From Candidatus Latescibacterota bacterium (GTDB lineage Bacteria > Latescibacterota > UBA2968): a stretch of 64,000 bases of DNA. The translations under genes were made by a program, and so were the position numbers. The DNA lies in the NCBI GenBank assembly GCA_965204745.1, contig OZ242010.1, positions 3,296,001 to 3,360,000 of the forward strand. The letters run 5' to 3'. The notes below the pieces were generated by a model. The model saw only the letters and a list, made by a program, of their open reading frames with translations. It searched no databases and was not told the DNA's origin. Positions 21,928-46,400 of this stretch are shown in pieces; positions within the stretch are counted from its first letter, which is position 1; each line of letters opens with the position of its first letter.

Positions 21928-24900
21928 TTGACCCATCCATTTTTTGAACAACCCATTCTCAACTCGCCTTATGCCCACCCGAGCCGGCATTGGGAATTGG
22001 ACGAGGCCGGGCAACCGACTCAGCAGATCATCGAAAGCCGGAGGCAGGTCAAATTCATCACGCCGATCCCAAAGCCGAAGCGGCAAAGGGGCGCGAAACA
22101 AGCGGCGCTGATCTTCGACGAGGGCAAAGGGCTTTCAACCGAGCAACAACAGTACGCACACGCGGAAATCATCAACGGGGTCCGGCGGCAGATCGACCAA
22201 TGGCGAACCATACCCGACCCGAGCCAATGGCGCGTGACCCCCGAGACCGGGTGCTTGCTCCGGCACTGGCGGCATCATGCCTTCAGCGGGATTCGGCCCT
22301 TCTTCTGCCAAATTGAAGCAGTGGAGACCGCGATATGGCTCGCCGAGGTCGCGCCGCGCATGGGGCGCGTTGGCAGAGACTTCCTCGATCATCTGGCAAA
22401 TGCCAACAACGACGCCAACCCCGAGTTGCCGCGTCTCGCGCTCAAGTTGGCGACAGGCGCGGGCAAGACCACTGTGATGGCGATGTTGATCGCCTGGCAG
22501 ACCATCAATGCGGTACGCCATCCCCAAAGCCGCAGATTCACGTGCGGGTTTCTCGTGGTCACGCCCGGCATCACCATCAAAGATCGCCTCCGCGTGTTGC
22601 AACCCCATGATCCGGACAGCTATTACCAAAGCCGCGAATTGATCCCAAGCGACATGCTGCCCGATCTAAAAAAGGCCAAGATCGTCATCACCAATTACCA
22701 CGCCTTTAAGCGGCGCGAGCGCATCGAACTCGCCAAAGGCAGTCGCTCCTTGCTTCAAGGACGCGGCGAGGCCCTCTCGACTTTGGAAGCCGGGGGGCAG
22801 ATGTTGCGCCGGGTCATGCCCGAACTCATGAACATAAAAAATATCATGGTTCTCAACGACGAAGCGCACCATTGCTACCGGGAAAAGCCGGGCGAGGATG
22901 GGGAAGGCAGGCTCACGGGCGACGACCAGCGGGAAGCCCAAAAGAACCGGGAAGCGGCCCGCCTGTGGATTTCCGGGCTCGAAACAGTGGGCAAAAAACT
23001 CGGCATCGGCCGGGTGATGGATCTCTCTGCGACGCCATTCTTTTTGCGCGGGTCGGGCTATGCCGAAGGCACGTTGTTCCCCTGGACAATGAGCGACTTT
23101 TCGCTGATGGACGCCATTGAATGCGGCATTGTCAAGTTGCCCCGCGTGCCCGTGGCCGACAACATCCCCGGCGGAGACATGCCGAAGTTCCGCAATCTTT
23201 GGGAACACATCCGCACCGCCATGCCAAAGGCGAGCCGGTCCAAATTCCTCGATCCCCACAGCCTGCCCGTAGAACTCCAGACCGCCCTAGACGCGCTGTA
23301 CGGGCATTACGAGCAAACCTTTGAGCAGATGCAAGCGGCGGGCATTGCCATGCCGCCGTGCTTTATCGTGGTGTGCAACAACATCTCGACCTCCAAGTTG
23401 GTCTATGACTACATCTCGGGTTTTTACCGGGAAAATGACGACGGTTCGCGGATCTTGGAAAACGGCCGCCTGCACCTTTTCCGCAATTTTGACGAGAATG
23501 GCAACCCGTACGCCCGGCCGCGCACCTTGTTGGTCAACAGCGAACAATTGGAATCTGGCGACGCGCTGGACAAAAACTTCCGCGCCATGGCCGCAGACGA
23601 GATCGAACGCTTCCGGCGCGAAATCATCGCACGCACCGGGGATCGCCACCGCGCCGAGAACATCGACGATCAAGCGTTGTTGCGCGAGGTGATGAATACC
23701 GTGGGCAAACCGGGGCGGCTCGGGGATTCGATTCGCTGCGTGGTGTCCGTGGCCATGCTCACCGAAGGGTGGGACGCAAATACCGTCAGCCATGTGCTGG
23801 GCATTCGCGCTTTTGGCACGCAGTTGCTCTGCGAGCAGGTCATCGGCCGCGCCCTGCGCCGGCAATCCTACGATCTCAATGACCAGGGCCTGTTCGACGT
23901 GGAGTACGCCGACGTGTTGGGCATCCCCTTCGATTTTACGGCAAAGCCCGTCGTTGCCCCGCCGCAAAAGCCGCGCGCGACCATTCAGGTCAAAGCCGTG
24001 CGCCCCGAACGAGACGCGCTTGAAATTCGCTTTCCGCGCGTGGCCGGGTACCGCGTGGCACTGCCGCAAGAGCGACTTCGCGCCGCGTTTAATGACGACG
24101 CGACGCTCATGCTCACGCCCGATCTCGTGGGGCCATCGCGCACGCACAACCAAGGGATCATCGGCGAGGGCGTCGATCTCACGCTGATTCACACCAACGA
24201 CCTGCGGCGCACGACCTTGCTCTTTCACCTGACCAAGCGGTTGCTCTACACAAAGTGGCGCGATCCGGGCGAGGTGCCAAAGCTCCACCTGTTCGGCCAA
24301 CTCAAACAGATCACGCGCCAGTGGCTGACCGACCACCTCGTTTGCAAGGGCGGCACGTACCCCGCGCAACTGATGTACCAGGAACTGGCCGACATCGCCT
24401 GCGAGCGCATCACCGCCGCGATCACGCGCCACCACGCAACCGAGCGCCCCATCGAGGTCATGCTCGATTCCTACAATCCCTCGGGATCCACCGCGCAGAT
24501 CCACTTCAACACGTCCAAGACCAGCCGCTACGAAACCGATGCGCGGCGTTGCCACGTCAACTGGGTCGTCCTCGACAGCGATTGGGAAGCCGAGTTTTGC
24601 CGCGTTGCCGAATCCCATCCGCGCGTCAAAGCCTACGTCAAAAACCACAATCTCGGCCTGGAGGTGCCCTATCGCGTGGGCGCAAAGTCCCGCACGTACA
24701 TCCCGGATTTCATCGTGCAGCTTGACGATGGCGATGCCGACCCGTTGCACCTGATCGCGGAGATCAAGGGCTACCGCGGCGAAGACGCAAAGGACAAGAA
24801 GACCGCGATGGAAACCTATTGGATCCCGGGCGTGAACCGCCTCCGCGATTACGGTCGTTGGGCCTTTGCCGAACTCACCGATGTTTATGAAATCGAATCC

Positions 24901-24951
24901 GCATTTGCCGATTGTGTCCGCCGGTTAGTCGCAAATCCGCCCCAAAGTTGA
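21928..24951 (+). CDS. res: Type III restriction enzyme Res subunit (SF2 helicase plus PD-(D/E)XK nuclease)
   Basis: ATGAGKT, DEAH, SAT, LTEGWD, QVIGRALR and PDFIV...EIKG motifs; GGAGG RBS before TTG. Confidence 0.88.
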   Translation: MTHPFFEQPILNSPYAHPSRHWELDEAGQPTQQIIESRRQVKFITPIPKPKRQRGAKQAALIFDEGKGLSTEQQQYAHAEIINGVRRQIDQWRTIPDPSQWRVTPETGCLLRHWRHHAFSGIRPFFCQIEAVETAIWLAEVAPRMGRVGRDFLDHLANANNDANPELPRLALKLATGAGKTTVMAMLIAWQTINAVRHPQSRRFTCGFLVVTPGITIKDRLRVLQPHDPDSYYQSRELIPSDMLPDLKKAKIVITNYHAFKRRERIELAKGSRSLLQGRGEALSTLEAGGQMLRRVMPELMNIKNIMVLNDEAHHCYREKPGEDGEGRLTGDDQREAQKNREAARLWISGLETVGKKLGIGRVMDLSATPFFLRGSGYAEGTLFPWTMSDFSLMDAIECGIVKLPRVPVADNIPGGDMPKFRNLWEHIRTAMPKASRSKFLDPHSLPVELQTALDALYGHYEQTFEQMQAAGIAMPPCFIVVCNNISTSKLVYDYISGFYRENDDGSRILENGRLHLFRNFDENGNPYARPRTLLVNSEQLESGDALDKNFRAMAADEIERFRREIIARTGDRHRAENIDDQALLREVMNTVGKPGRLGDSIRCVVSVAMLTEGWDANTVSHVLGIRAFGTQLLCEQVIGRALRRQSYDLNDQGLFDVEYADVLGIPFDFTAKPVVAPPQKPRATIQVKAVRPERDALEIRFPRVAGYRVALPQERLRAAFNDDATLMLTPDLVGPSRTHNQGIIGEGVDLTLIHTNDLRRTTLLFHLTKRLLYTKWRDPGEVPKLHLFGQLKQITRQWLTDHLVCKGGTYPAQLMYQELADIACERITAAITRHHATERPIEVMLDSYNPSGSTAQIHFNTSKTSRYETDARRCHVNWVVLDSDWEAEFCRVAESHPRVKAYVKNHNLGLEVPYRVGAKSRTYIPDFIVQLDDGDADPLHLIAEIKGYRGEDAKDKKTAMETYWIPGVNRLRDYGRWAFAELTDVYEIESAFADCVRRLVANPPQS

Positions 24952-24986
24952 CAAATGGTGACTGGTTTTCTATCTTTTTTGTCAAC
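24947..24986 (+). promoter_or_regulatory. Repeated sigma70-type promoter module, copy A (TTGACA-17-TATCTT, bounded by GTTGAC/GTCAAC)
   Basis: Consensus spacing; overlaps res stop codon; repeated at 25829 and 27976. Confidence 0.7.
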
Positions 24987-25039
24987 TGAGCGAATCAGTC
25001 ATTGTCGATGCGGGTGGCTTTTAATGAAAGGCGGTAACA

Positions 25040-25438
25040 GTGGATACAGGGCTTAATTTTTCGCGTGTATTGAAGTACGAAGGTTTTGTTGCATTCTGGC
25101 TTCTCCTTGTCGATAGTCTTGCGGTCATGTTATGGTTGAATAAATTTGGTCTGAATCCGTATCGAGGCATTCAAGGCGCGGGTGATATGGTGGGCTTTGT
25201 TGCCTTGTTGTTGTTCATTCCTTTATCAGCATTGGAGGCGATCATGATTTTTTATCAAATGTTTAAGGAGCGAGAACGCCGAGAAGGGCGCGAAGAAGGG
25301 CTTCAAGAAGGACGCCAAGAAGGACGCGAAGAAGCGCGGCAGGAATTGCTTCAAGAGCTCACTCGCGTGTTTGCGGGCGATAAAGACGCCATGGAAAAGA
25401 TCGATAAATTTTTCAATGGCACAGCCAGTCAGAAGTAA
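25040..25438 (+). CDS. Small membrane protein (2 TM) with C-terminal EGREEG-type charged repeat
   Basis: GTG start after GAAAGG; two hydrophobic segments; internal GGAGG-N5-ATG at 25244. Confidence 0.65.
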   Translation: MDTGLNFSRVLKYEGFVAFWLLLVDSLAVMLWLNKFGLNPYRGIQGAGDMVGFVALLLFIPLSALEAIMIFYQMFKERERREGREEGLQEGRQEGREEARQELLQELTRVFAGDKDAMEKIDKFFNGTASQK

Positions 25439-25482
25439 ATCGCAAAACATTATTCGGCCCTTTATCATCACTGGAGGCGATC

Positions 25483-25701
25483 ATGATTTTTTACGAAATG
25501 TTTAAGAAGCGAGAACGCCGAGAAGGGCGCGAAGAAGGACGCCGAGAAGGACGCCAAAAAGGGCTTCAAGAAGGGCGTAGAGAAGGGCTTCAAGAAGCGC
25601 GGCAGGAATTGCTTCAAGAGCTCACTCGCGTGTTTGCGGGCGATAAAGACGCCATGGAGAAGATCGATAAATTTTTCAATGGCACAGCCAGTCAAAAGTA
25701 A
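25483..25701 (+). CDS. Duplicated C-terminal module of the preceding gene with its own RBS
   Basis: Near-identical to 25244-25438, including the GGAGGCGATCATG start context; two extra 4-aa repeat units. Confidence 0.6.
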   Translation: MIFYEMFKKRERREGREEGRREGRQKGLQEGRREGLQEARQELLQELTRVFAGDKDAMEKIDKFFNGTASQK

Positions 25702-25828
25702 ATCGCAAGGCGTTATTCGGCATTGGACGTGCAAAGTACGTGGCGCGGAGTTAAATGCGAGGCGGAACATTCGCAACACCCGTTGCCTCTGTTGCGAGAC
25801 TTGATTGACAAAGCCATCAACCCCAAAG

Positions 25829-25869
25829 GTTGACAAATGGTGATAGGTATTCTATCTTTATTTTTGTCA
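25829..25869 (+). promoter_or_regulatory. Promoter module copy B, interrupted at its GTCAAC arm by IS982
   Basis: TTGACA-17-TATCTT; remainder resumes at 27942. Confidence 0.65.
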
Positions 25870-25882
25870 ATGCGAATTAAGA

Positions 25883-26959
25883 TAGGACTTACGCCAGGGT
25901 CATTGGTATCGCCGGTGTTTTGAGTTGTTGTCTCAAATAGTCCTCCCATAAGCCATGTTTGACTTGAGAGATGGTTTGTCCGGTCTGATGGGCGACTTGG
26001 GTCAGTCGTCCCCAAACGAGAAAGGCACACGCAATGTGGTTTCGCACAATGCGTGCCAATCGGCATTGACACTTTTCAAGCCCCGTTACCTGTTTTGCTT
26101 CCCGGTGAACTTGCTCAATCTTCCAACGCAAGTGGCACACCTCTTGTGCCACCGACGGGTCGGTTTGCGTCAAGTCGTTGGTTACGATATACGCCGTGCG
26201 TCCCGTAGGAGATGCAACCCGGAATACGTTCACCTTATGGTTTTTGGGGAACCCTCTGAGTTTCATGCGTTTTCCTGTGGCCTGTTCGCGTTTTGTCCAA
26301 GTTAAGGCATCGACCCGTTGATAGGGGTTTTCACCTGCCGAATCGTCCACGAGGCGATTCTTTTTAATAGGACAGGAATAGGTCTTTTGCAAGTGCTCAA
26401 TGTGAAGCATGACCGCTTTGGTGGCATACCAAGTATCCATCACGACCCGATCAAAAGGCAGCTTTTTGTGATAGACCAAGAGTGACAACATCTCTTTGAC
26501 GGGGTCTAACTTGGTTTTTCCGTCCCCTTCTGGGTCGTAAATGCGAGAGTCAATCAACCAAAACGGATCGGTAACCGGATTGACAGACACACATGTCACC
26601 ACACCGATCCCATTGATGACCCCCTTCGCATTGCCACTGTATTGCCGACGCACGAGGGCCATCTTTTTCGCATAGCGCTTGTCTTGGACCGTATCATCAA
26701 AGAGAACCACGCCCTTTGCGGTCGACGTGAGGTGGGGTTTGACGTTTTTCCAGATCTCACGCGGCGAGACGCGATCCCCACTCAGCGTGCGGTTGAGCAT
26801 ATCATGCGTGAACTGGTCGCTGTGATCTGCGAAATGAGTCAGGGTATAGTTGTGCGGACTACTAAGCAATACTGGCAGTAATCCAGGCGCGTTGGTTTCG
26901 CCATACAGACCTCCAATGTGAGGATGGGGGGCGTCCCGTTCTTTTTTGCGTAAGTCCTA
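25883..26959 (-). mobile_element. IS701-family element, copy 1
   Basis: IRs TAGGACTTACGC; 6-bp TSD TTAAGA (25877-25882, 26960-26965). Confidence 0.9.
25889..26904 (-). pseudogene. IS701 transposase, frameshifted near the 5' end
   Basis: 1-nt deletion near 26870 relative to the intact copy (1016 vs 1017 nt); FDDT, MDTWY, RWKIE motifs. Confidence 0.8.
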
Positions 26960-27035
26960 TTAAGAGTTGAATCCATCGCGTACTTGTCTTTTCTTGAGGG
27001 CTCAACCATTTCACCCTTAAAGGAAGGAGCACGCG

Positions 27036-27929
27036 ATGGATTGGCAAGATAAACTCATTCACTTGTATGTCTATATTTGTCAGCAGTATGACCAAAAGCA
27101 TCTGTGGTTTTATACACAACGCATGAGTAATAACGATACGCCGACCTTCACAGATGAAGAAGTGCTGACGATCTATCTGTTTGGGATCATGCAACAACAC
27201 ACGCAGATCAAGGCGATTTATACCTATACCAAGGATCATCTTTCCGACTGGTTTCCCCATCTGCCCACTTATGCAGGCTATATCCAGCGGTTGAACCGTT
27301 TGTGTGTGGTCTTCGCCCCATTGATTGAACAGATCCAAAAGGACAGTCCCGCAACCGATGTCTCTGAACACACCTACAGGGTGGATTCCATGCCGATTGT
27401 TATGGCACAATCGGCACGTAGCGGAAAGGCATGTGTGGCCGAAGAACAACTGGCCAACAAAGGCCGGTGCGCTTCCAAAAAGATGTGGTATTACGGCACT
27501 AAACTGCACATTGTCGCACAAGACCGAGCGAATGGCCTGCCCAAAGCAGAGTACTTCGGCTTGACAGGCGCAGCAGAGCATGACCTGACCGCTTTGCGAC
27601 AAGGCTTACCCGTTTTGCGGGATGGACACCTCTACGGCGATAAAATCTACGCCGATCAGCCCTTAAAAGACACGCTTAGCAAACAGCAGAACCTGATCTT
27701 CAAGACGCCGGTGAAGCGAAAGAAGGGGCAAGAAAGCCTGACCGAGGCCGAAAAAGACTTTTCTCGGGCGGTTTCGAGCATGCGACAGCCTATAGAGGCC
27801 TTGTTCAGTTGGATTGAACGAAAGACGAACATCTCGATGGCGTCTCGGGTACGATCCTATGAGGGCTTACTCGTTCATGTCTTTGGGCGATTGACCGCGG
27901 CTTGCTTCTTACTCGCTTTCTACTCTTGA
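27036..27929 (+). CDS. IS982-family DDE transposase
   Basis: FTDEEVLT, VDSMPI, YYGTKLH, GDKIY and RQPIEALF motifs. Confidence 0.88.
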   Translation: MDWQDKLIHLYVYICQQYDQKHLWFYTQRMSNNDTPTFTDEEVLTIYLFGIMQQHTQIKAIYTYTKDHLSDWFPHLPTYAGYIQRLNRLCVVFAPLIEQIQKDSPATDVSEHTYRVDSMPIVMAQSARSGKACVAEEQLANKGRCASKKMWYYGTKLHIVAQDRANGLPKAEYFGLTGAAEHDLTALRQGLPVLRDGHLYGDKIYADQPLKDTLSKQQNLIFKTPVKRKKGQESLTEAEKDFSRAVSSMRQPIEALFSWIERKTNISMASRVRSYEGLLVHVFGRLTAACFLLAFYS

Positions 27930-27975
27930 TTCGCATTGTCAACAAAAAGATTGACTATTATTCATGCCAAAAAAG

Positions 27976-28018
27976 GTTGACAAATGGTGATAGGTATTCT
28001 ATCTTTATTTACGTCAAC
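27976..28018 (+). promoter_or_regulatory. Promoter module copy C
   Basis: TTGACA-17-TATCTT then GTCAAC; tandem duplicate of copy B. Confidence 0.7.
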
Positions 28019-28047
28019 AAAAAGATTGACCATTATTCATCCCAAAA

Positions 28048-29046
28048 ATGGAACGAGAGATGCAAAAAACATTACAGGACGCTGGCGACGACAATCAACA
28101 CGACGAGTCTCAGCAGAAAATGAAACAGGAAATGCAAAGCGCGTTGCAAGGCTTGGCTACCAAACGGCGGCGTCCCGTTCTTTGCTTCTATGGAGATATG
28201 GATCCGGTTTCTGTCCAGACGATACGTCGTATCGCGCCTAAATTAGAAGAGTCCAGTAAATTATCGGTGTTGTTGCATTCCCCCGGAGGCAATATTGAGG
28301 ATGCCTATAGAATAGTTTTGACATTGCGAGAATACGCAGAAGATATCGAAGTGCTCGTGCCTCAATGGGCAAAAAGTGCTGCGACCTTTTTTTCTCTCGT
28401 GGCAAATACCATTTATATCGGACGGTATGGAGAACTGGGGCCTCTCGATCCGCAGAGGTTAAATCTAAAAGGAAGCGCGCTGTGGACCTCTGCACTGGAA
28501 TCGTTTAAGGCACTTGATCAACTTTTTGAATTCTCTTTAGACTCTTTAGATGGGATAGTCCAGAACTTATTAATGCGTGCTCCGATAGATATTCCCTATG
28601 CAATAGAACACGCACAACCATTATTCTCAGCAATCGTGTCGCCTCTATACTCCCAAGTTGACCCACATGAATTGGGCAATGCGGGAAGGGCGTTGGCTAC
28701 TAGCGAGGAATATGCGATGAGAGTAATGGAGAGATGGGGATATTCAGAGCTAGGAGATAAGGAAAGGCGGGAGATAGCATGGCGTTTAACTTGGGATTAT
28801 CCGACGCATGGATTTGTCATTGACTTGGAGGAAGCAAAACAGATCGGGCTGAAAGCCAAAAGACTTGACCATGAATGTGACGAGATGTGTAGGGAAACAT
28901 TGGCACTGCTCAACAGCGCAGATATCCCTCACTATATTGACATTGAATCCCCACCACCAGATGTCCAAGACAAGGAGAACAGGCATGAACCCAAAGGAGA
29001 GGAACTTGCAGAGAGGGATTCGGAGAGGCAACAGAACGCCGTTTAG
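28048..29046 (+). CDS. SDH-family Clp-fold serine protease
   Basis: HSPGG, AKSAAT (Ser), LGPLDPQ (Asp) and YPTHG (His) motifs; lower GC than flanks. Confidence 0.82.
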   Translation: MEREMQKTLQDAGDDNQHDESQQKMKQEMQSALQGLATKRRRPVLCFYGDMDPVSVQTIRRIAPKLEESSKLSVLLHSPGGNIEDAYRIVLTLREYAEDIEVLVPQWAKSAATFFSLVANTIYIGRYGELGPLDPQRLNLKGSALWTSALESFKALDQLFEFSLDSLDGIVQNLLMRAPIDIPYAIEHAQPLFSAIVSPLYSQVDPHELGNAGRALATSEEYAMRVMERWGYSELGDKERREIAWRLTWDYPTHGFVIDLEEAKQIGLKAKRLDHECDEMCRETLALLNSADIPHYIDIESPPPDVQDKENRHEPKGEELAERDSERQQNAV

Positions 29047-30463
29047 GCGCGAAAAGGCATCCGAGCGATCATCTCTTCGCATCAAGAGGTGGTTGCGGCA
29101 AAGGCGAATCTATCGCGGCATTAAAGAAGTGCCCTTTATGCCCTATGAGGATGATAGATCCAAGGGCAGACCAGGGTACTGAAAAATCCAATTTTGATCC
29201 ACATCCGCTCCATGGCAGTACGTCTTGCTCCCATCGCGCAATGAGGGCGATCACAAGTAAGACCGATCCCTTGGAGCTTTTTTTTGTACAAGTCGAGAAA
29301 GGATCGCGCCCATGGCGAAACGAGCGAGAACGCCCAAATCCGTCGAAACCCTCACGCACGGCGATGCGACGCGCAAGAATATTCCCACCGCCGAGTATCA
29401 ACCCGTGATGCGGGAAGAGGAGCAAACCCCGATTCGAGTCGCCTATCAGCGGCGCAACCGCGACCTCGATCCGCAACTCGTCTGGCGCGGCAAGGACGAG
29501 CAGGATTGGTCCGATTTGGTCGTTCAAGCCCCGCCGATCTTCATCCAAGAGAAGGTGCATCCCAAGGTCGTGATCGACGACCTGATGCGCCAATGCGCGG
29601 AGACAGCCACCACAGCACAGGGGTTCCAGCCCGACTTGTTCGCCGATTTCAACGGCCTGCCCGACCCAAGCGCGGCGACCGAGTTCTATCAGCACGACGC
29701 CAACTGGTCAAACCGCATGATCCTCGGCGACAGCCTGCAAGTGATGGCATCCTTGGCCGAGCGCGAGGGCCTGCGCGGTCAAGTGCAGTGCATTTACATC
29801 GACCCGCCCTACGGCATCAAGTTCAATTCCAATTTCCTACCGGCAACACCCAGCCGCGAGGTGCGAGATGGCAAGCGCGAGCACATCACGCGAGAGCCAG
29901 AGCAGATCAAGGCGTATCGGGATACGTGGCGCGACGGCATCCATTCCTACCTGACCTACCTCCGCGACCGCCTGACCGTAGCACGCGACTTGCTGACCGA
30001 GAGCGGGTCATTGTTCTTTCAGATCGGAGACGAAAATGTCCATCGCGTCAGGGCGTTGATGGACGAGATATTTGGGGATGAGAATTTTGTCGGGGAGATT
30101 ATTTTCAAAACCCGTAGCACTTCTACCAGCAAAAATCTGTCTGCATTGAACGATTACATCATCTGGTATTGTAGAGATATTAATGCTCTAAAATTCCGTC
30201 AATTTTACGTGCCGAAAAGTGCTGACAGGGCGCGTTTCAGTTTTGTCGATATTGATGGCGAAGTTTTCAGGGCGAGTAAAAATGCCGGGAGCGTTAAAAT
30301 ATTTTCAAGTAGTAGCCTGTTTTCAACAAGCGGCGGCGACGCCTCCCGGATTCCCTTTGAGTTCCGTGGCAAAGAATATACCCCGGCAACCTCTCGCGGA
30401 TGGCGCTGCTCACTTGATGGACTATTACGCCTTACCTATGCAAGCCGTATATTTAACCAAGGT

Positions 30464-33040: not shown

Positions 33041-33200
33041 ACCCTGTACAGCGACACGTCGCGGCCGTTCGCCAAACCCACCTCCGGACGCATCGCGGTC
33101 AAGGTGATCAACCACTTGGGCGATGAAGTGATGAAAGTATTTCGGGTATAAGGGCATTGATCGCGACGAAAGGCTATGTGATTAAGTGATGTCGTGACGC
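33041..33200. repeat. 160-bp direct repeat, copy A (mod 3' end plus downstream)
   Basis: Matches 38978-39137 with scattered substitutions. Confidence 0.95.
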
Positions 33201-33668
33201 CTGGTGTCTCAAGATGTGTGATGTTTTCAGAAACCACTTGGCGCATCCTCGATTGCACGCTATATTTTGAAACATAGAGATATAAACCTTTCTGTTCGCG
33301 AGCAATTGTCAGCGCACGGAAAGAGAGGGAAGGATAAAGGGTGCTTGTGTATGATTGAGCACCCTTCTTTTTTAACTCAAAAAATGGGATTACAGCGACG
33401 CAATAAATTCGACAAACGCGCTCCAATTTGCCAATAGAGATAGGGAGGTCAAAGAAATTTGGCCTCCCTAAATTGTTGTAAAATCGCTGGATGTGTGAAC
33501 TTGATTTTGATATTTGGATGTTTTTATAGTGAACTATCAAAATAAATCTTGACACAAGAGATAGAAATTGGTACCTTTCTTTCATATCTTGATTTCTGTG
33601 CCACTTTTCCATAGGTGGGAATCTATTCTCTCGCAGAAATCGCCACCATTCATGATAAGGAGTATCAC

Positions 33669-34928: not shown

Positions 34929-35362
34929 TGGGACTGACGATTTGGAAACAGGCTGAACTCATGAAACGATCCTGGCCTGACTTTCGGGTTCTTCATCAAA
35001 TTCGTTGGTTTATATGCTGGGAGGGGCAACTTCGGCCTTTTAATCAAACATACATAGTTCAAATATTCCTCTCACGCAAACGGGGATGTAGCCGTGACAA
35101 ATTATTGACAGTTCCGGCCGTGATGGTAATTGATCCCCTGCTGTGCAGGCGAGTTGAAAATCCCAGTGAACCCATACCACATCACTATCCAAACCAAGAG
35201 CATCCCGAGTTACCCTTTCTTTGCCTCTACGATCCCGATACTCAAGAGTGGCACCCCGGTCGATCGGTAGCCCAGACTATTATCCCTTGGACGATTGATT
35301 GGCTGGCGTGCTACGAGGGTTGGCTTGCCACTGGAAAATGGACCGGAGGTGGTCGTCACTGA
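34928..35362 (+). CDS. Prokaryotic E2-like protein (short type II CBASS)
   Basis: IPHHY...LCLY...EW...TIIPW...WL..YE.WL.TG.W.GGG pattern; translationally coupled to the CD-NTase. Confidence 0.78.
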   Translation: MGLTIWKQAELMKRSWPDFRVLHQIRWFICWEGQLRPFNQTYIVQIFLSRKRGCSRDKLLTVPAVMVIDPLLCRRVENPSEPIPHHYPNQEHPELPFLCLYDPDTQEWHPGRSVAQTIIPWTIDWLACYEGWLATGKWTGGGRH

Positions 35363-35384
35363 TTATAGGTTAAGTAGGGGTACA

Positions 35385-36440
35385 ATGTCCACTAGCAAAG
35401 AGAATCCTCCGAAACGATCATCCGGTGCGCTCACTCAGCGTCGTGTTCCACTACCTTGGCCACAAGATCGGGAGTTTCGTATCCTCTCTATCAATGGTGG
35501 TGGCATCCGTGGAATATTTCCGGCCGCATTCTTGGCAGGGTTGGAGGAACGCTATCTCAACGAAACTTCTGTGGCCCAATACTTTGATCTTATTGCTGGA
35601 ACCTCAACCGGAGGTATTATTGCCCTTGGACTCGCTGCTAGGCTTCCAGCCGCTGAACTGCGAGACCTTTATATTGAGCGCGGATGCGAAATTTTCCCTC
35701 CTATTCGTAACGGCCTTTTTGGAGTAGCAGAACGACGCCTGAAAAACTTTTGCCAATATTTTAAATTTCGCTATGATCGCGATGCCCTTATGCGCGTCCT
35801 CAATGATACCTTTGGCGACCGAAAATTTGGCGAAGCACAGACCAGGTTGTGCATACCCTCTTTTGATGGTCAGTATGGAGAAGTATATATTTTTAAGACG
35901 CCACATCATCCAGACTTCCGCAATGATGCTAAGGAGTACATGACAAAGGTGGCCGCGGCTACATCTGCAGCGCCGACATTCTTCCGTCCACTTGAGGATG
36001 GTGGATACAAATTCGTTGATGGTGGAGTTTGGGCAAACAATCCCATTATGATTGCATTGGTCGATGCGTTATCCTGCTTTTCCGTACCGCGAGAACGCAT
36101 CCGCATTCTAAGTTTGGGCTGTGGAGATGACGAATATCCTGTTGGCAAGTTGAAAATGTTGTTGGGCGGCAAATTATCTTGGTACGACATCATCTTTGCA
36201 GCGATGCGTCTCCAGTCTCTCAACGCTCTTGGTCAAGCCGGGTTGCTAATTGGTGCTAACAGAATTATGAAAGTCAACGCGCCCATTTGTGGCAAGCAAA
36301 TACAACTAGACGATTGGAGTCGCGCTGTGGAAGAGTTGCCCTCGGTTGCCATAGCGACTCTCGACGAGATCGGCGAAACCGTGGCGTCTGCATTTTTAGC
36401 AGAGCCCGCTACTCCTTACCAGCCAATTATCCCCATCTGA
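35385..36440 (+). CDS. Patatin-like phospholipase, CBASS effector (CapV-like)
   Basis: GGGIRG, GTSTGG, SAAPTFF and DGGVWANNP motifs. Confidence 0.88.
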   Translation: MSTSKENPPKRSSGALTQRRVPLPWPQDREFRILSINGGGIRGIFPAAFLAGLEERYLNETSVAQYFDLIAGTSTGGIIALGLAARLPAAELRDLYIERGCEIFPPIRNGLFGVAERRLKNFCQYFKFRYDRDALMRVLNDTFGDRKFGEAQTRLCIPSFDGQYGEVYIFKTPHHPDFRNDAKEYMTKVAAATSAAPTFFRPLEDGGYKFVDGGVWANNPIMIALVDALSCFSVPRERIRILSLGCGDDEYPVGKLKMLLGGKLSWYDIIFAAMRLQSLNALGQAGLLIGANRIMKVNAPICGKQIQLDDWSRAVEELPSVAIATLDEIGETVASAFLAEPATPYQPIIPI

Positions 36441-36651
36441 AGATATTGAAAAATCCCATCCCTGCTACCACTCTATAACTTTGGATAGAATCCTATCATC
36501 CAGCAAAGAGGATCGTTTGCTGGATTTCCGACCCGAGTTCAACCTTGCAGATACCCAATAGATTAGGCTTGTATTATACATCTTGATAGCCGTATAATAG
36601 AGGATCAAGGGCTGATGTTTCCATGATTACCCTCTTTCACGAGATAATACA

Positions 36652-37908
36652 ATGCTGACGCAGCGTGAATTGGGACAGCGGTTGAAACGGGCGCGAGAGG
36701 CAACCGGGTTGACTCAACAGCAGGTCGCCGAGCATGTTGCGCTCACCCGGGTTGCCATCTCCCAAATTGAGTCGGGGCACCGCATGGTCAGTTCGCTTGA
36801 ATTGACGCGCTTGGCGCGCCTTTACGGCCGGGATATCGCCAGTTTCTTAGAAGAAAAGCCCTCCCCGAATGAAAAAGAAAACGCGCTGACCGTCCTGTTT
36901 CGCGCACATCCCGATCTCATGCAAAACCCCACCCCCCTGCGAAACGCCACCGAACTGTTCCGAGAATATACCAATCTGAAAGCCCTCTTGGATCTGGATA
37001 CAGAACAGAACCTGCCGCCTAGATATGCTTGTGCCGAACCGAGAAATGTTTGGGAAGCCATTCAAATGGGCGAACGGGCCGCCGAGGCGGAACGCAGTCG
37101 TCTGGCATTGGGGATAGATCCCATCCGCGACATGGCCGAGTTGGTGGAATCCCAGGGCATACCCGTCATTGAAATTGATTTGGACGATCAGATATCGGGT
37201 ATTTTTATGACCGATGCCGAGGGGCAATTGTGCATCTTCATCAACCAGGCACAGTTCGACAAAGCCAAGGCTCGCGTCGCATTTACCATTGCCCATGAAT
37301 ACAGTCACATATTGCTCGACCGGGATAAGGTCAGTGCCATCAGCAAAATCTCAAATGATCGCGATTTGTTTGAAGTGCGTGCGAATGCGTTTGCCGCAGC
37401 GTTTCTCATGCCCGAAGAAGGCGTGAGTCAATTTCTCAAAACCATCGGCAAGGGCGAGGCCAGTCGCGAAAAGTTGTTGGCTTATACCGAGCAGCACGAT
37501 CCGCTTGTCGGGCATCATCGCCGCTTGGCATCCACCCAAATCATCACGCTTTACGATGTCGTCAAGCTGTGTATGTCCTTTGGAACCAGCTATGAAGCCG
37601 CCTTGTACAGATTGAGAAACACAAAATTTCTATCCGAAGGATCATTTGATCACCTCTACCGACGAAAAGACGAAGCAAGGGAAATTGTACAAAATCTCAA
37701 AATAGAAGGAAGGCGAGAATACCCCAGCAGTTTCGCCCTCAACTTCACGGGTATGGCTATCGAAGCCTATCGCCGCGACAAAATCACGTACGACAAATTG
37801 ATCGCGCTCGCCGATCAAGTGGCGTTTGATTCCAAGGTCATAGACCAAATACTTTGCTACATGGGACTGGAGAACAATCTCGAAGCAGAGGTCTATCTCC
37901 CGGAGTGA
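36652..37908 (+). CDS. XRE HTH fused to ImmA/IrrE-family zinc metallopeptidase
   Basis: N-terminal HTH_3; FTIAHEYSH (HExxH); EVRANAFAAAFLMP. Confidence 0.88.
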   Translation: MLTQRELGQRLKRAREATGLTQQQVAEHVALTRVAISQIESGHRMVSSLELTRLARLYGRDIASFLEEKPSPNEKENALTVLFRAHPDLMQNPTPLRNATELFREYTNLKALLDLDTEQNLPPRYACAEPRNVWEAIQMGERAAEAERSRLALGIDPIRDMAELVESQGIPVIEIDLDDQISGIFMTDAEGQLCIFINQAQFDKAKARVAFTIAHEYSHILLDRDKVSAISKISNDRDLFEVRANAFAAAFLMPEEGVSQFLKTIGKGEASREKLLAYTEQHDPLVGHHRRLASTQIITLYDVVKLCMSFGTSYEAALYRLRNTKFLSEGSFDHLYRRKDEAREIVQNLKIEGRREYPSSFALNFTGMAIEAYRRDKITYDKLIALADQVAFDSKVIDQILCYMGLENNLEAEVYLPE

Positions 37909-37912
37909 TCTC

Positions 37913-38431
37913 GTGCAACAAAAAACAGAGAGCCAGTCATGCGCGATCACAGACGCAAATATCCTGATCAACTTTATCAAACTTGGCCGCGTGGATATTC
38001 TCCAACAACTGCGAATGTATGCTTTCTATCTGTCCGAGGAAGTGTATCGGGAAATCACATATCCAGCACAACGGCTCGTTTTAGATCATGCCCTAAAAAA
38101 TGGATGGCTTAGAGAGACAGTGATAACGGATCAAAATGAATTGCGTTCTTATGCACAGTACAGACGACAAATGGGAGATGGAGAAGCCGCGTGTTTGGCG
38201 ATTGCGATTTGTCGAAAATGGATCATGGTCTGCGATGAGAAAAAAAAGAAACTGATTTCCAGAACTGTTCGGCATCATTTAGGAGCGGGTTATCTGCTGA
38301 ATACACCGGGTATTTTGCTCAAGGCCATACGCGAGGGTATTCTCACTGTATCACAAGCAGACGCAATCAAAAACACATTGGCGCAGAACCGATTTGTCAT
38401 GCCATTTGCATCTTTCCAGAATTTTATCTGA
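37913..38431 (+). CDS. PIN-domain protein
   Basis: ITDANILI, GDGEAACLAIA, CDE, TPGIL motifs. Confidence 0.78.
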   Translation: MQQKTESQSCAITDANILINFIKLGRVDILQQLRMYAFYLSEEVYREITYPAQRLVLDHALKNGWLRETVITDQNELRSYAQYRRQMGDGEAACLAIAICRKWIMVCDEKKKKLISRTVRHHLGAGYLLNTPGILLKAIREGILTVSQADAIKNTLAQNRFVMPFASFQNFI

Positions 38432-38453
38432 AATAGGACACCGTCCTGCTACC

Positions 38454-38488
38454 AAAAAGGCCGCGAGGGTTTCATTCCTCGCGGCCTT
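38454..38488. terminator. Terminator-like hairpin AGGCCGCGAGG-loop-CCTCGCGGCCT
   Basis: Strong stem with an A-tract on the left; a second copy at 42925-42957. Confidence 0.6.
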
Positions 38489-38537
38489 CCGAACATCCCT
38501 GCCGCTGTCCTACCCGTTACTTGAGCATGTTGCGGGC

Positions 38538-38657
38538 CACCGTCTCTCGGGTAACCGTCAAAATGCCTGGAGCATTTCGATATCTGGCAATTGGCGAATC
38601 GCGTTTGAAGAAGATGAAGGGTGTATTGACCGCTTAAACTTGGAGGATTACCACTGA
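38538..38657 (+). pseudogene. higB: 5'-truncated HigB toxin fragment
   Basis: HRLSGNRQNAWSISISGNWRIAF...LEDYH is the HigB C-terminal half; no proper start. Confidence 0.75.
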
Positions 38658-38944
38658 TGACAACTCATGGCATTGCAGTAACCATGACCCCTTCGCATCC
38701 GGGCGACTTCATTCGCACAGAGATCATCGAGGAGTTGGGGCTAAGCGTGACGCGGATAGCCGAGATTTTGGGAGTTCGTCAAGCGACGCTTTCAGAGGTG
38801 CTAAACGGCCATGCCGCGCTATCGCCGGAAATGGCCCTACGCATCGAAAAGGTATTTGACATCAGCATGGATATGTTGTTGCGAATGCAGGCTTGGTATG
38901 ACGCCTCGCAAATGCGCGCCCGGGCAAATGAGATTGAGGTTTAA
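38657..38944 (+). CDS. higA: HigA-family antitoxin (HTH)
   Basis: HPGDFI...LSPEMALRIEKVF...LRMQAWYD; coupled to the higB stop. Confidence 0.85.
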   Translation: MTTHGIAVTMTPSHPGDFIRTEIIEELGLSVTRIAEILGVRQATLSEVLNGHAALSPEMALRIEKVFDISMDMLLRMQAWYDASQMRARANEIEV

Positions 38945-38977
38945 CGCTACGCATCCGCTTGAAGGTTGCCAGGCTCA

Positions 38978-39137
38978 ACCCTGCACAGCGACACGTCGCG
39001 GCCATTCGCCAAACCCACCTCCGGACGCATCGCGGTCAAGGCGATCAACCACTTGGGCGATGAGGTGATGAAAGTGTTTCGCGTGTGAGGGCATTGATCG
39101 CGACGAAAGGCTATGTGATTAAGTGATGTCGTGACGC
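38978..39137. repeat. 160-bp direct repeat, copy B (orphan mod 3' end)
   Basis: Encodes SDTSRPFAKPTSGRIAVKAINHLGDEVMKVFRV*, matching the mod C-terminus. Confidence 0.95.
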
Positions 39138-39259
39138 AAAAAAACAAGTTCGATCTTTAAGATTGAAAATCTACTATTGACGCATGAGACGTGAAACGAT
39201 ATTTTTTGAACGGATTAAAAATAGAAGGCTTACCCGTATCGAGATAGGAAAATTTCAGC

Positions 39260-42200
39260 ATGAACCAATCTAAACTTCGTCAGTTGCTCGACCGTCTGTG
39301 CGGACTTCCAGAGAACGAATGGCTCGAGTTCAAGAAAGCGAAAAAGGGGTATGACTTCAATAAGTTAGGCCAGTATTTCTCCGCGCTGTCCAATGAAGCC
39401 AACCTCAACGGGCAAGCGTGCGGTTGGTTGGTATTCGGCGTAAGCGATGATCGTTCGGTTTGCGGCAGCCAGTTCCGCAAAGACCGAGCGGATCTTAACA
39501 GCTTGAAACATGAAATCGCCAATCATACGACTGGTGGCCTCACATTTGTCGATATTCACGTCGTTGAGCACCCGAACGGTCGCGTCGTGATGTTCGAGAT
39601 TCCGGCCGCATTACAAGGCATACCAACGGCGTGGAAAGAACATTGGTACGGACGCAATGGCGAGTCCCTAGGCGGTCTTAGCCTGATGGAATTGGAAAAA
39701 ATTCGGTCAAATTCTTCTGGCGGGCATCAAGACTGGAATCGCCACGAGTACGCCCCAGACTTGGCTATTGCCAACTTGCTTGGGTCATGGAATGAGCTAA
39801 ACGAAGCGGATGTAGAGATCGTGAGTCAACTGATCAATGATGAGGATTACGCAAAGTGGATTCTCAAAATGAGGGAGATGTTAAGCCAAGCGATAAGCCC
39901 TGTGAGATATGTAAATGGAAAATGGTATGTCGATGATCGAAAAGAACTGTGGCAGGCGTTGGGCAAACGAGTTTTTGACGAGAGCCTGAACGCCCTAAAA
40001 CAATGCGCTATCGCTGTCTTGTCCGAGTGCGATCCCCAGTTTGACTTACCTCCCGATGAACGCTATACCGCCCGTATCTCTGGAAAGACATTGAAGTACT
40101 CATCTACACTTCGGACAGGACTGACCGAAACGCTGGCACTGCTCGGCACTGCCCCCGATGCTTTGATCAATTTTTCACCTCAAGGTTGGAAGCCAAAAGA
40201 TACGGCTGATTTTGTCGTGCGAGAAATACTCGAGAATGCGGATTGGGTGTTGTGGGGAAGCCTTAGGGGTCTTCTCTCGACACTCGCAGAAGCAGCCCCG
40301 GATAAATTTTTGGATGCCGTGGAAAATGCCTTGCAACGATCCCTTTGCCCATTTGATGCGCTTTTCGCCCAAGAGGGTGCTCCGATCACTGGCAGCAGTT
40401 ATATGTCGGACTTGCTGTGGGCATTGGAAACACTCGCTTGGGATGCCGAGTACCTCGTCCGCGTATGTGTGATTCTCGGCAAACTCGCCAGCCGCGACCC
40501 GGGCGGCCCTTGGGCAAACCGTCCCGCCGATTCGCTGTCGATGATCTTATTGCCCTGGCTTCCACAAACGATCGCGCCAGTTGAAAAACGCAAAGTCGCC
40601 ATTCAAACGCTCTGCGATGAATTGCCAGAAATTGCTTGGAACTTGATCGTCAGCCTGTTGCCCGGCCAGAACCAGATAACCACTGGGACTCGCAAACCGG
40701 CCTGGCGCAATACCATACCCGTTGATTGGAAAGAAAAAGTTACCAGGCAGGATTATCGAGATCAAGTAGCGTTCTGCGCCGAACGCGCGGTTTCAATCGC
40801 AGGTTGTGATCCGGATAAACTCGGCGAACTGATTGACCATTTAGCCGGTTTTCCCAAACCTTCATTTCACGCGTTGCTCGAGACTTTAGCGTCTGATTCC
40901 ATTACAGCACTTTCAGAAGAAAAACGGTTACACCTTTGGGACAAACTCGTAAAATTCATATCCCGACACCGACGTTTATCGGGCGAAAAAGGGACTCGGA
41001 ACGATGGGTCGCTCGCGCCCATTGAGGCCGTTGCGAACGAGTTGGCTCCTAAGAATCCTTTGAATCTCTATCGCAGATTATTCAGCCGCAGTATTTGGGA
41101 TCACTCTACAAAAAGTGAAGATTGGACAAAGCAGCTCGATAGAGACCGTCAGCAAGCTATAAAAGAGATTTTGGCTTGCGGTGGGGTGGAGTTGGTCCTT
41201 CGATTCGCCGAAGTTGTCGAGGCCCCGTGGGATGTTGGTCGTTCTTTGGGTGCGATTGCCCAAGTGGAAAACGACAGACGCCTTCTGCCCGCATTGTTGG
41301 AAACCGAGAATGACAAACTCGCGCTGTTTGCAAATAACTATGTCAGAAGCCGCCAAAACATCGCTGGATGGAAATGGGTCGATGGCTTTGATATCTCGAA
41401 CTGGTCAGCTTCGCAAATAGGTCGATTCTTAGCCGCTTTGCCCTTCACGAGAGAAGCGTGGCACCGTGCTACAAAATGGCTCGGCAAGTCCGAAGAGGAG
41501 TACTGGAGCAAAACCAGCGCAAACCCATATAGTACCGATGAGGATCTCCGCTTTGCCATAGACAAACTGATCGCGCATGGCAGACCCCATGCGGCTATCA
41601 AATGTCTGATGTGCCAAATGGACCTCGGCAAACAGCCATTGGACAACGCTCTATGCGTAAAGGCTCTTAGGGCCGCCATTTCTTCTTATGAACCTTCCCA
41701 TGAAGTAGAGACGCATAGCATCATTGCAATCGTAAAGGCTTTACAGGACGATCCCAAAACCGATCCCGACGCGCTTTTTCAAATCGAATGGGCATATCTG
41801 CGCTTGCTCGACAAATATTATCACCCTGACGCATCGCCGAAGACATTGAAAAATAGGCTGGCTTCTGATCCCGAGTTTTTTTGTGAAGTGATACGCCTCG
41901 TCTATCGGTCAAAAAGGGAAACGGAATCTCCGCAACAACTCGATGACCGAGATAAAGTCATTGCCGACAACGCATACGAACTCCTCCGTAACTGGCAGAC
42001 TCCTCCAGGTACGCAAGCGGATGGTCGATTTTTGCCGGAACAATTCGAGAAGTGGTTCAAACGAACAAAAGAAGCGTGTGTTGAATCTGGACATCTCGAA
42101 GTCGCTCTCAGGCGTATAGGTGAAGTTCTCATTCATGCCCCACCGGATCCAAAAGGGCTGTGGATCCATCGAACCCTAGCATCTGCGCTCAACACAGAGG

Positions 42201-42508
42201 ATGCGGGGGAAATGAGGGATGGGTTCCGGGTCGGAATTTACAATGCTCGCGGGGTTCATGTGGTTGACCCAACGGGAAAACCAGAGCGAGAGCTCGCCGA
42301 AAAATACAGACAACAGGCCGAAGAAGTTGAAAATGCGGGCTATCACCGTTTTGCTATTACACTCCGGAACTTGGAAAAAGAATACAATCGGGAGGCGGAA
42401 GTATATGTCGCTGAGCATCAACGGGAAAGTGCCCGCCAATTGGCACGCCTCGGCGGGAGCGAGCCACAACTGCAATCCATACCACGCCAACGGACTGATC
42501 GCGCATGA
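39260..42508 (+). CDS. Schlafen/AlbA_2-domain protein with large helical region and VapB-like C-terminal tail
   Basis: ENEWLEFK, SALSN, GWLVFGVSD and YGRNGES motifs; tail RESARQLARLGGSEPQLQSIPRQR. Confidence 0.75.
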   Translation: MNQSKLRQLLDRLCGLPENEWLEFKKAKKGYDFNKLGQYFSALSNEANLNGQACGWLVFGVSDDRSVCGSQFRKDRADLNSLKHEIANHTTGGLTFVDIHVVEHPNGRVVMFEIPAALQGIPTAWKEHWYGRNGESLGGLSLMELEKIRSNSSGGHQDWNRHEYAPDLAIANLLGSWNELNEADVEIVSQLINDEDYAKWILKMREMLSQAISPVRYVNGKWYVDDRKELWQALGKRVFDESLNALKQCAIAVLSECDPQFDLPPDERYTARISGKTLKYSSTLRTGLTETLALLGTAPDALINFSPQGWKPKDTADFVVREILENADWVLWGSLRGLLSTLAEAAPDKFLDAVENALQRSLCPFDALFAQEGAPITGSSYMSDLLWALETLAWDAEYLVRVCVILGKLASRDPGGPWANRPADSLSMILLPWLPQTIAPVEKRKVAIQTLCDELPEIAWNLIVSLLPGQNQITTGTRKPAWRNTIPVDWKEKVTRQDYRDQVAFCAERAVSIAGCDPDKLGELIDHLAGFPKPSFHALLETLASDSITALSEEKRLHLWDKLVKFISRHRRLSGEKGTRNDGSLAPIEAVANELAPKNPLNLYRRLFSRSIWDHSTKSEDWTKQLDRDRQQAIKEILACGGVELVLRFAEVVEAPWDVGRSLGAIAQVENDRRLLPALLETENDKLALFANNYVRSRQNIAGWKWVDGFDISNWSASQIGRFLAALPFTREAWHRATKWLGKSEEEYWSKTSANPYSTDEDLRFAIDKLIAHGRPHAAIKCLMCQMDLGKQPLDNALCVKALRAAISSYEPSHEVETHSIIAIVKALQDDPKTDPDALFQIEWAYLRLLDKYYHPDASPKTLKNRLASDPEFFCEVIRLVYRSKRETESPQQLDDRDKVIADNAYELLRNWQTPPGTQADGRFLPEQFEKWFKRTKEACVESGHLEVALRRIGEVLIHAPPDPKGLWIHRTLASALNTEDAGEMRDGFRVGIYNARGVHVVDPTGKPERELAEKYRQQAEEVENAGYHRFAITLRNLEKEYNREAEVYVAEHQRESARQLARLGGSEPQLQSIPRQRTDRA

Positions 42509-42870
42509 TTTTAGTTGATACCTCCGTCTGGATTGATCATTTGAGTAGCGAAGAAAATCACTTGGTTATCCTATTAAATAATGGTCTGGTATTGACTCAC
42601 CCCATGGTCGTTGGAGAACTGGCTTGCGGCAATCTGAGCAATCGCGGAGCGATTTTGACGATGCTCAAAAATTTGCCCCAAGCATCGGTTGCCCCCGATG
42701 ACCAAGTGCTTCGCTTCATTGAACGGAACCAACTCATGGGCCGTGGTATCAACTATATTGATTTTCATCTGCTGACCGCCACAGCATTGACTAAAGCGAC
42801 CGAACTTTGGACACGCGATAAACGGCTTATGGATGCTGCTAAACAACTAAATCTCGCTTACGAAATTTAA
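42505..42870 (+). CDS. vapC: VapC-family PIN toxin
   Basis: ILVDTSVWIDHL, HPMVVGELACG, IDFHLL, LWTRDKRL; ATGA overlap with the upstream gene. Confidence 0.9.
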   Translation: MILVDTSVWIDHLSSEENHLVILLNNGLVLTHPMVVGELACGNLSNRGAILTMLKNLPQASVAPDDQVLRFIERNQLMGRGINYIDFHLLTATALTKATELWTRDKRLMDAAKQLNLAYEI

Positions 42871-42924
42871 GGGAGGCAGGGAGGTCGCGTGTTTGGCGAT
42901 TGCGATTTGTCGGATGATGAGCAC

Positions 42925-42957
42925 AGGTCGCGAGGGTTTCATTCCTCGCGGCCTTTT
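42925..42957 (+). terminator. Rho-independent terminator (copy of the 38454 hairpin)
   Basis: AGGTCGCGAGG-loop-CCTCGCGGCCT followed by T residues. Confidence 0.65.
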
Positions 42958-46134: not shown

Positions 46135-46189
46135 GGGGGCCTCCTGTGATGAGGGGGTTGTAAGGGATCTGGTGCGCGCTCGGGGTCGC

Positions 46190-46390: not shown

Positions 46391-46400
46391 TCCAAGATAC

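Follow-up and report, generated by a model that had tools for sequence, protein, structure and literature searches.

How can a defence island collect and exchange its genes if it carries no integrase of its own? This question is raised by the region 21928–42957 of a 64,000-nt window (the whole stretch of DNA analysed here, to whose positions coordinates refer unless another locus is named) from a sponge-associated bacterium with a Latescibacterota-type genome, G000, which was assembled as a single, repeat-rich contig of 5.48 Mb. The region holds a restriction gene, res, and a modification gene, mod, which form a Type III-like restriction-modification (R-M) pair, with candidate defence genes, hereafter cargo, between them and behind mod. 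A first-pass annotation had described it as an acting R-M platform without an integrase, in which conserved ends of res and mod serve as recombination anchors for exchanging cargo. Our analysis was based on an open reading frame (ORF) listing, on Pfam, PADLOC and NCBIfam profiles, and on comparison with related loci and public metagenome contigs. Overall, the integrase-free hotspot with changing defence cargo was borne out, while the defined anchors and the acting R-M system were not. The reading that we favour, at a probability of roughly 60%, is a defence island seated on a res-first Type III-like pair, whose cassettes are exchanged by homology-anchored illegitimate recombination and whose gene-end fragments are the scars of that exchange.

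Gene-end fragments and changing cargo

For comparison we used an order-level and a cross-phylum sample. Within the order, res homologues occurred in 22 of 41 genomes (G000 included), and 17 loci were retrieved from 14 of them; the closest relatives are G016 and G018, and G016 and G001 were rated as the same genus as the window. The cross-phylum sample comprised 49 loci from many phyla, with Res 60–91% identical and with mod gaps that are approximate, being taken from tblastn coordinates. The features on which the argument turns are the following.

21928–24951, + strand: res, 1007 aa, intact; superfamily 2 (SF2) helicase domain and C-terminal endonuclease domain; BPTD_3080-family restriction endonuclease
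29312–30463, + strand: mod, N-terminal part; PADLOC MTase_III PDLC03632, E 2e-135
31544–33151, + strand: mod, C-terminal part; PADLOC PDLC03632, E 3.6e-270
33041–33200, + strand: 160-nt repeat, copy 1; comprises the final 110 nt of mod and the next 49–50 nt
33413–33579, + strand: linker with a hairpin and a promoter-like site; also found upstream of other cassettes in G016 and G018
38978–39137, + strand: 160-nt repeat, copy 2; a mod 3' fragment whose left edge is an illegitimate junction

The duplication of the end of mod, which the annotation had reported as occurring twice, was found as described: the copies are 95% identical, differ at 8 of 160 positions, have unique flanks and have no further copy in G000. 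Its most informative part is the left edge of copy 2 (38977/38978). Up to this point the sequence tracks the higA–mazE region of G018, 12 nt into a mazE-like ORF, and it then continues as mod at −110; the switch falls in an imperfect microhomology of 10–12 nt. The junction from higA to the mod fragment is bridged by a contig of a public sponge-metagenome run (37539–39032). In contigs of three runs, the linker is joined straight to the region upstream of the Schlafen gene (33495 to 39140, with 1–2 letters between), which is the order seen in G018. A promoter inside the repeat, considered as an explanation for its retention, was discarded after a promoter scan of 33041–33200 came back empty. In run X9 the contig carrying the cyclic-oligonucleotide-based anti-phage signalling system (CBASS) had a depth of 51.7 against approximately 90–100 elsewhere, a difference that, like the stretches lacking contig cover, is not interpretable from contigs alone.

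The duplication is also not unique to this assembly. We searched 16 loci having both genes with probes from the res 3' end, the mod 5' end and the mod 3' end, and an extra piece of at least one of them lay beside cargo in 10 (11 if a weak 46-nt match in L020 is counted). No extra gene-end copy was found in four of the 16 (L015, L021, L023 and L024), and L029 has an internal repeat only. The terminal 20-mer of mod occurs in two copies in G000, three in G016 and two in G018. By comparison, 23 of 3413 long-ORF ends in G000 (0.7%) have a partial downstream copy, many of these being tandem paralogues; relative to this base rate, gene-end copies are clearly enriched at res–mod loci.

The fragments do not share a boundary. 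Relative to the mod stop, they start at −25, −50, −89, −107, −110 and −208 and end from −7 to about +200; several end a few bases from the stop, with the next gene immediately behind them, as in G016, where Dsr2 starts 12 nt later. No fixed crossover point can be drawn through them, and the idea of gene ends as defined recombination anchors is not supported. Since the boundaries vary and the dissected junction lies in microhomology, we read the fragments as scars rather than as att-like sites. Weak copies of the res 3' end, 40–46 nt long, were also seen in L018 (577–616) and L020 (465–510; oriented coordinates for both), just 5' of a Schlafen+HATPase_c_4 gene; this gene lies before res in several genomes of the genus and between res and mod in other loci. 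Three 3'-end duplications in G000 have nearly equal spacing (~5.91–5.94 kb) and were considered as a common element, but their interiors are unrelated and the spacing is a coincidence.

A comparison of cargo among relatives had been set beforehand as the test of the hotspot, and the content proved not to be fixed. Within the order, both genes are present in 15 loci; the gap between res and mod ranges there from 313 to 4602 nt and is occupied by HepT, MNT, PIN, Fic, DUF1828, Schlafen+HATPase_c_4, a protease of the SDH type, or tandem coiled-coil ORFs. Across phyla, mod starts after res in 39 of 49 loci; the gap exceeds 300 nt in approximately 25 of these 39 and is at most 160 nt in 14. Of the 34 gap ORFs scanned there, 23 have Pfam families: Bro-N (six loci), Schlafen or DUF4062 with HATPase_c_4, 23S_rRNA_IVP, DUF1828, YhcG, HNH, AAA_35, PIN, and an SDH protease with PIN and HepT. 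With the spacer occupied in approximately 25 of 39 loci, spacer filling is a property of the family and not a peculiarity of G000. Behind mod, the relatives carry Dsr2 (G016), IetA/IetS, AAA_15+DUF4435, GmrSD, a reverse transcriptase or a UvrD-like helicase. The three closest loci read as follows.

G000: mod, linker, CBASS, RosmerTA-like pair, higA, mod fragment, Schlafen–PIN
G018: mod, small ORF, linker, Schlafen–PIN, PIN', higA, mazEF, mod fragment, PIN, RosmerTA-like pair, higA
G016: mod, linker, RosmerTA-like pair, mod fragment, Dsr2, higBA, mod fragment

Blocks of homology among these genomes start and stop at gene borders, for example at the ribosome-binding site of res (21913) and 12 nt before the start codon of the rmrA-like gene. 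The CBASS (~33580–36639) is an insertion relative to G016, bordered by the shared promoter-bearing linker on one side and by that point 12 nt before the rmrA-like start on the other; the same slot lacks a CBASS in both G016 and G018. An empty site for the whole island was not found in the relatives, where the flank homologues lie more than 1 Mb apart (G016, G018) and the genomes are too rearranged to tell. Conversely, the flanks of the G016 locus map to three distant places in G000.

How the cassettes may have been exchanged

The mechanism that we propose is inferred from the one dissected junction and from the geometry of the fragments. Cargo would turn over through recombination among related res–mod loci in the population. 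Incoming DNA would pair through conserved res or mod, which provides the homologous side, and its far end would be joined illegitimately at a short microhomology close to a gene end. The gene end would be duplicated as a result, and the older cassette would be shoved downstream, keeping the last 25–330 nt of its former upstream gene. Such a process corresponds to what we take to be homology-facilitated illegitimate recombination, as known from naturally transformable bacteria. It would explain two properties of the fragments: they contain the very end of a gene because they once adjoined its cargo, and the mod pieces at cassettes are ragged because each cassette once followed a mod gene and moved with it.

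Several points weigh against this reading. No recombination intermediate was seen, in public runs that were compared as assembled contigs, which lose rare variants, and that yielded 15 listed joints out of 35. One clean event, whether Campbell-type or anchored, does not lead from the linker–Schlafen form to the layout of G000; in addition, ~300–350 nt must have been lost between the mod fragment and the Schlafen gene. The enrichment is also less clean than the counts suggest: the base-rate control used other criteria than the locus search and includes tandem paralogues, and loci of the same genus are kin, so that fewer independent events lie behind the 10 of 16 than this count implies. In the cross-phylum sample, flanking repeats were found in only 2 of 40 loci of at least 9 kb (L036, which is G016, and L066). 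Finally, the genes of the relatives were called by a crude longest-ORF method.

Other routes to the same layout have to be weighed against these data. Circular DNA bearing a gene end and cargo could integrate by one crossover of the Campbell type, leaving direct repeats that permit later excision and re-use. Direct repeats do surround cargo: the window has a pair of 160 nt, L019 one of 55 nt at a PIN cassette, L026 one of 51 nt and L066 one of 69–78 nt at an AAA_35 cassette. The cassettes of G000 and G018 also stand in opposite order, which fits a newcomer entering beside mod. A single crossover, however, should repeat the whole shared stretch (the mod end of ~295 nt and the linker), whereas copy 2 comprises 160 nt only and begins at a microhomology join inside the mazE-like ORF. 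Moreover, none of the 15 contig joints listed is a recombination joint between the two 160-nt copies, be it a deletion or a circle. We consider capture of this type unlikely. In a site-specific cassette system, integron-like or dif-module-like, a recombinase encoded elsewhere would recognize a short site where res or mod ends; an enzyme in cis would then be unnecessary, and the mod-end 20-mer does lie at cassette boundaries (7 copies in three genomes). Nevertheless, this shared 20-mer is trivial, as any fragment of a former neighbour must hold the gene end. The spread of fragment starts (−25 to −208) and ends (−7 to about +200) and the lack of an integrase domain among the scanned ORFs of the interval also speak against such a system, which we judge very unlikely.

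The insertion sequences (ISs) of the region suggest yet another origin, in which IS701, IS982 or IS110 elements brought or shuffled the cargo as composite transposons. The interval contains three IS copies, with an IS110-family transposase gene 2.2 kb to its right, and the stretch 25876–28046 is duplicated at ~100% identity 0.5 Mb away, beside another IS701 copy. Yet a separate short target duplication accompanies every IS, and each one breaks into older sequence; IS ends border none of the cargo blocks, and G016 and G018 have cassettes in the same slots without these IS copies. IS-driven assembly is therefore highly improbable. As for an assembly artefact, a single-contig assembly of a repeat-rich genome invites the suspicion that the 160-nt duplication is spurious; the 8 differences between the copies, their unique flanks, the public contig across the higA–fragment junction and the same kind of fragment in other assemblies render this extremely improbable. 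Beyond the preferred reading of scars left by illegitimate recombination, one may speculate, as a quite unlikely extension, that gene-border pieces (the res 3' end, the spacer, mod ends and promoter linkers) act as portable homology arms for an integrase-free, integron-like exchange of cassettes in the symbiont population, perhaps via circular intermediates and perhaps stimulated by DNA breaks that the restriction enzyme of the pair itself makes.

The gene pair, its insertion sequences and its cargo

The assignment of the pair rests on several profiles. Res scored 1335 bits against NCBIfam NF046055 (restr_BPTD_3080; cutoff 800) and matched Pfam ResIII (E 3.4e-8), with RE_endonuc slightly below its cutoff (22.3 against 23.4 bits); its match to the PADLOC REase_III/Type III profiles was weak (E 4.5e-6). 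It is 91% identical to its homologues in G016 and G018, and its SF2 motor with a C-terminal endonuclease is what a Type III Res subunit has. In mod, the Pfam N6_N4_Mtase profile is covered from 1 to 114 in the N-terminal part and from 159 to 217 in the C-terminal part, with the target-recognition region inserted in the catalytic domain, as in a Type III N6/N4 DNA methyltransferase. The intact mod orthologue of G016 scored 1343 bits against PDLC03632, and in relatives mod is one ORF of 818–1060 aa. Res precedes mod in 15 of 17 loci of the order and, as noted above, in most of the cross-phylum loci; the res-first order is the norm for this family. The exceptions within the order are L016, with weak mod-like fragments, and L028, with mod pieces beside a Mutator-family transposase.

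One stretch of mod varies. Approximately 440 nt (30091–30463 and 31544–31609) match G016 and have no DNA similarity to G018 (L013); this stretch is probably the target-recognition region, and the match to G016 but not to G018 indicates a swap of specificity domains. IS701 copy 2 is located within this variable region. The mod genes of G016 and G001 have an additional ~440 nt near the C-terminus. A second, diverged res–mod pair exists in G016 (L029); its Res is 45% identical, its spacer contains a DUF5615 gene, and an Rpn-family homologue is located close by.

Between 21928 and 42957, Pfam found no integrase or resolvase domain among the ORFs scanned, in agreement with the annotation. It had, though, missed three ISs, whose DDE transposase genes were recognized by Pfam and NCBIfam. 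They are listed here with the promoter-like module that two of them split.

24943–24988, + strand: module copy 1; overlaps the res stop codon
25825–25870, + strand: module copy 2; left half of a 75-nt tandem pair
25870–27936, + strand: IS982-family element; transposase 27036–27929; 5-bp target duplication TGTCA; nested IS701 copy inside
25883–26959, − strand: IS701-family copy 1; transposase 25889–26869; 12-bp terminal inverted repeats; 6-bp target duplication TTAAGA
27937–28051, + strand: rest of the 75-nt tandem units; holds module copy 3 (27972–28017); directly 5' of the protease gene
30464–31543, − strand: IS701-family copy 2; 1080 bp; 12-bp terminal inverted repeats; 6-bp target duplication CAAGGT; inside mod

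Removal of IS701 copy 2 and one copy of its target duplication restores an open mod frame of ~917 aa. The uninterrupted site exists in public contigs of two runs (joint 30457 to 31544, where 6 letters fit either side); one of these contigs, 1377 nt long, shows 0 and 4 differences on its two sides. A functional Type III system has both subunits intact, and in G000 mod is split. DNA recognition in Type III systems is supplied by Mod, so the R-M system should be inert despite the intact res. It is probably inactive in G000 and decaying rather than acting, contrary to the earlier description; it would be a case of an R-M system turned off by an IS while the neighbouring genes remain intact.

The annotation had also counted three promoter modules after res and taken them as repeats of the end of that gene. 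The three copies are there: the 46-nt module, with the promoter-like motif TTGACA-17-TATCTT (10 of 12 consensus positions), starts at 24943, 25825 and 27972. However, one lies at the res stop, and the other two were neighbouring 75-nt tandem units before an IS982 element inserted into TGTCA between them and an IS701 element then inserted into the IS982 copy at TTAAGA. The block between modules 2 and 3, formerly read as cargo, consists of the nested ISs only; part of the supposed cargo after res is thus IS DNA. Nor is the module a repeat of the res end. G016 has one module only, ~50 nt past the res stop and directly before the protease gene, and a similar 41-nt sequence stands 5' of a nadB-like gene elsewhere in G000. 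In our reading of these positions, the module would be a promoter belonging to the cargo and not a piece of res. Backward contig joints (25859 to 25023) are variants of the module and not circles.

The nested IS701-in-IS982 unit, with 109 nt of the protease promoter region (25876–28046), is the stretch found again at genome positions 3871481–3873650. That duplicate is inverted and abuts the further IS701 copy, and the genes on its two sides encode a dynamin-like GTPase and a PIN protein; it may have arisen by composite-transposon movement or gene conversion. Globally, G000 contains 13 IS701-type copies, more than 15 IS982-type copies with many solo ends, heptamer arrays (CAACTGA)n that are targets of the IS982 elements, and a short repeat of ~200 nt in more than 200 copies.

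The remaining features of the island are cargo.

25040–25701, + strand: pair of small ORFs in tandem (132 aa, 72 aa); ~83% identical repeat; not at this position in G016
28048–29046, + strand: SDH-type ClpP-like serine protease between res and mod; Pfam PF01972, E 4.8e-12
33615–34928, + strand: CD-NTase (CBASS); PADLOC Cyclase, E 2e-145
34928–35362, + strand: E2-like protein (CBASS); PADLOC E2, E 2.7e-44
35295–36440, + strand: patatin phospholipase effector (CBASS); PADLOC phospholipase effector, E 3.1e-110
36652–37908, + strand: XRE-ImmA protein; RmrA profiles, E 1e-31; RosmerTA-like
37913–38431, + strand: PIN-like ORF, 172 aa; weak PDC-S70 and DUF3368 matches
38394–38657, + strand: higB remnant; Pfam match to profile positions 54–90 of 91, E 0.0023
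38455–38488, + strand: GC-rich hairpin, which we read as a terminator
38657–38944, + strand: higA (Pfam)
39260–42508, + strand: Schlafen/AlbA_2 protein, 1082 aa
42505–42870, + strand: PIN gene ("vapC"); 4-nt overlap with the Schlafen stop and no antitoxin ORF between them
42871–42957, + strand: right edge of the island; 42-nt remnant of the PIN-like gene and a copy of the 38455–38488 hairpin

Most of the identities proposed earlier (the protease, CBASS, XRE-ImmA/PIN, higA, Schlafen and PIN) held, with two corrections. The higB gene looks truncated, as its last ~40 codons alone are homologous to the full-length higB of G016, and the gene called vapC has no antitoxin ORF. The latter forms a pair with the Schlafen gene in G018 as well (83% and 81% amino-acid identity, ~89% DNA identity), and behind the G018 pair comes the C-terminal part of the PIN-like gene whose 42-nt remnant is seen here (303-nt DNA match); Schlafen and PIN may together be a single unit of two genes and not a toxin-antitoxin pair. 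The CBASS, with a CD-NTase, an E2-like accessory protein and an effector, is of the E2-only kind. RosmerTA systems have RmrA, which combines an HTH with an M78/ImmA peptidase, beside a gene for a toxin; here RmrA profiles matched, and the neighbouring 172-aa ORF gave weak matches only. The lower GC content claimed for cargo was confirmed, at 0.46–0.52 compared with 0.58–0.63 for res, mod and the flanks. All cargo units share their orientation with res and mod, and several open with a promoter-like site of their own.

The SDH protease was found between res and mod in three loci of two phyla, one of them Latescibacterota (the window, 28048–29046; L014, 5573–6637; L061, 13310–14317), with 81% identity in G016 and 66% in a Caldilineaceae metagenome-assembled genome. 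It had no PADLOC match and is a candidate defence or R-M accessory gene.

To the left of the island, a 345-aa gene (18430–19467) has a weak Rpn-family (TIGR01784) match and belongs to a family of ~25 copies. It contains approximately 12 in-frame tandem copies of the 12-nt unit GAGCAGGGAATC (repeats 19090–19305) and is flanked by 63-nt direct repeats (18161–18223 and 19532–19594). That the Rpn-family gene drives recombination, or that its flanks are long target duplications, was rejected: the 63-nt repeat travels with other copies and is part of the element, the other flanking repeats are high-copy short repeats, and no link to the island was shown. To the right, next to the IS110-family transposase gene (45127–46209, − strand), lie tandem 7/14-nt G-rich repeats (AGAGGGG-like; 46381–46518), and ~270 nt away a C-rich array (46750–46833) that is partly complementary to them.

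Relation to known systems

Classical Type III systems such as EcoP1I and EcoP15I have the operon order mod then res, and their cleavage is ATP-dependent and requires two inversely oriented unmethylated sites. The pair described here resembles them in its Mod, an N6/N4 methyltransferase with an internal target-recognition region, and in its Res, a helicase-nuclease fusion. By contrast, res here precedes mod, Mod is ~917–1060 aa long with a long C-terminal extension, and Res matches the PADLOC Type III profiles weakly and NF046055 strongly.

The stacking of cassettes has a parallel in the orphan toxin-immunity modules of rhs and cdiA, where displaced cassettes accumulate downstream, each keeping a piece of the conserved gene. 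The likeness lies in the displaced cassettes stacked downstream with a gene piece. The rhs/cdiA modules, however, are C-terminal toxin domains and the piece they keep is coding toxin gene, whereas the cassettes here are independent defence operons. From the gene-end fragments one can read off which cassettes arrived earlier and which later, and the fragments are sequence-level evidence on how integrase-free islands grow.

Hotspots of defence genes between conserved anchors have also long been known. One example is the E. coli immigration control region, with variable defence content between conserved borders (reviewed in PMC12707154); others are the core defence hotspots of Pseudomonas and the repertoire of defence islands in E. 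coli (PMC10250203, PMC10121019). Many such hotspots likewise have no integrase, and exchange is thought to use flanking homology. Unlike them, the anchors here are R-M genes and not housekeeping genes, and the outer flanks are unconserved even in close relatives.

The closest precedent is embedding. According to the preprint by Payne et al. (bioRxiv 10.1101/2024.01.29.577857), defence genes sit inside Hma, BREX, DISARM as well as Type I R-M systems; 96.7% of them are co-oriented, many are known defence systems or toxin-antitoxin-like genes, and a few are transposases. Here the res–mod spacer contains the small ORFs and the SDH protease, on the + strand like their host genes; they are embedded in the same manner and are candidate defence genes. 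In the available main text of that preprint, "Type III" occurs only for defence-associated reverse transcriptase (DRT) type III and the word "recombination" is absent, and the mode of island growth is left open there. Here, by contrast, the genes are embedded in a Type III-like pair with res first, and the joints can be recognized by gene-end fragments. Our literature search turned up no paper that deals with embedded cargo at Type III R-M loci, which is not proof of absence. The present data extend the idea of guilt by embedding to a widespread res-first Type III-like family, whose res–mod spacer is a place to seek new defence genes such as the SDH-type protease. Overall, the locus belongs to a known kind, that of defence genes in and beside R-M loci; it differs in its host family and in the fragments that record the stacking of its cassettes.

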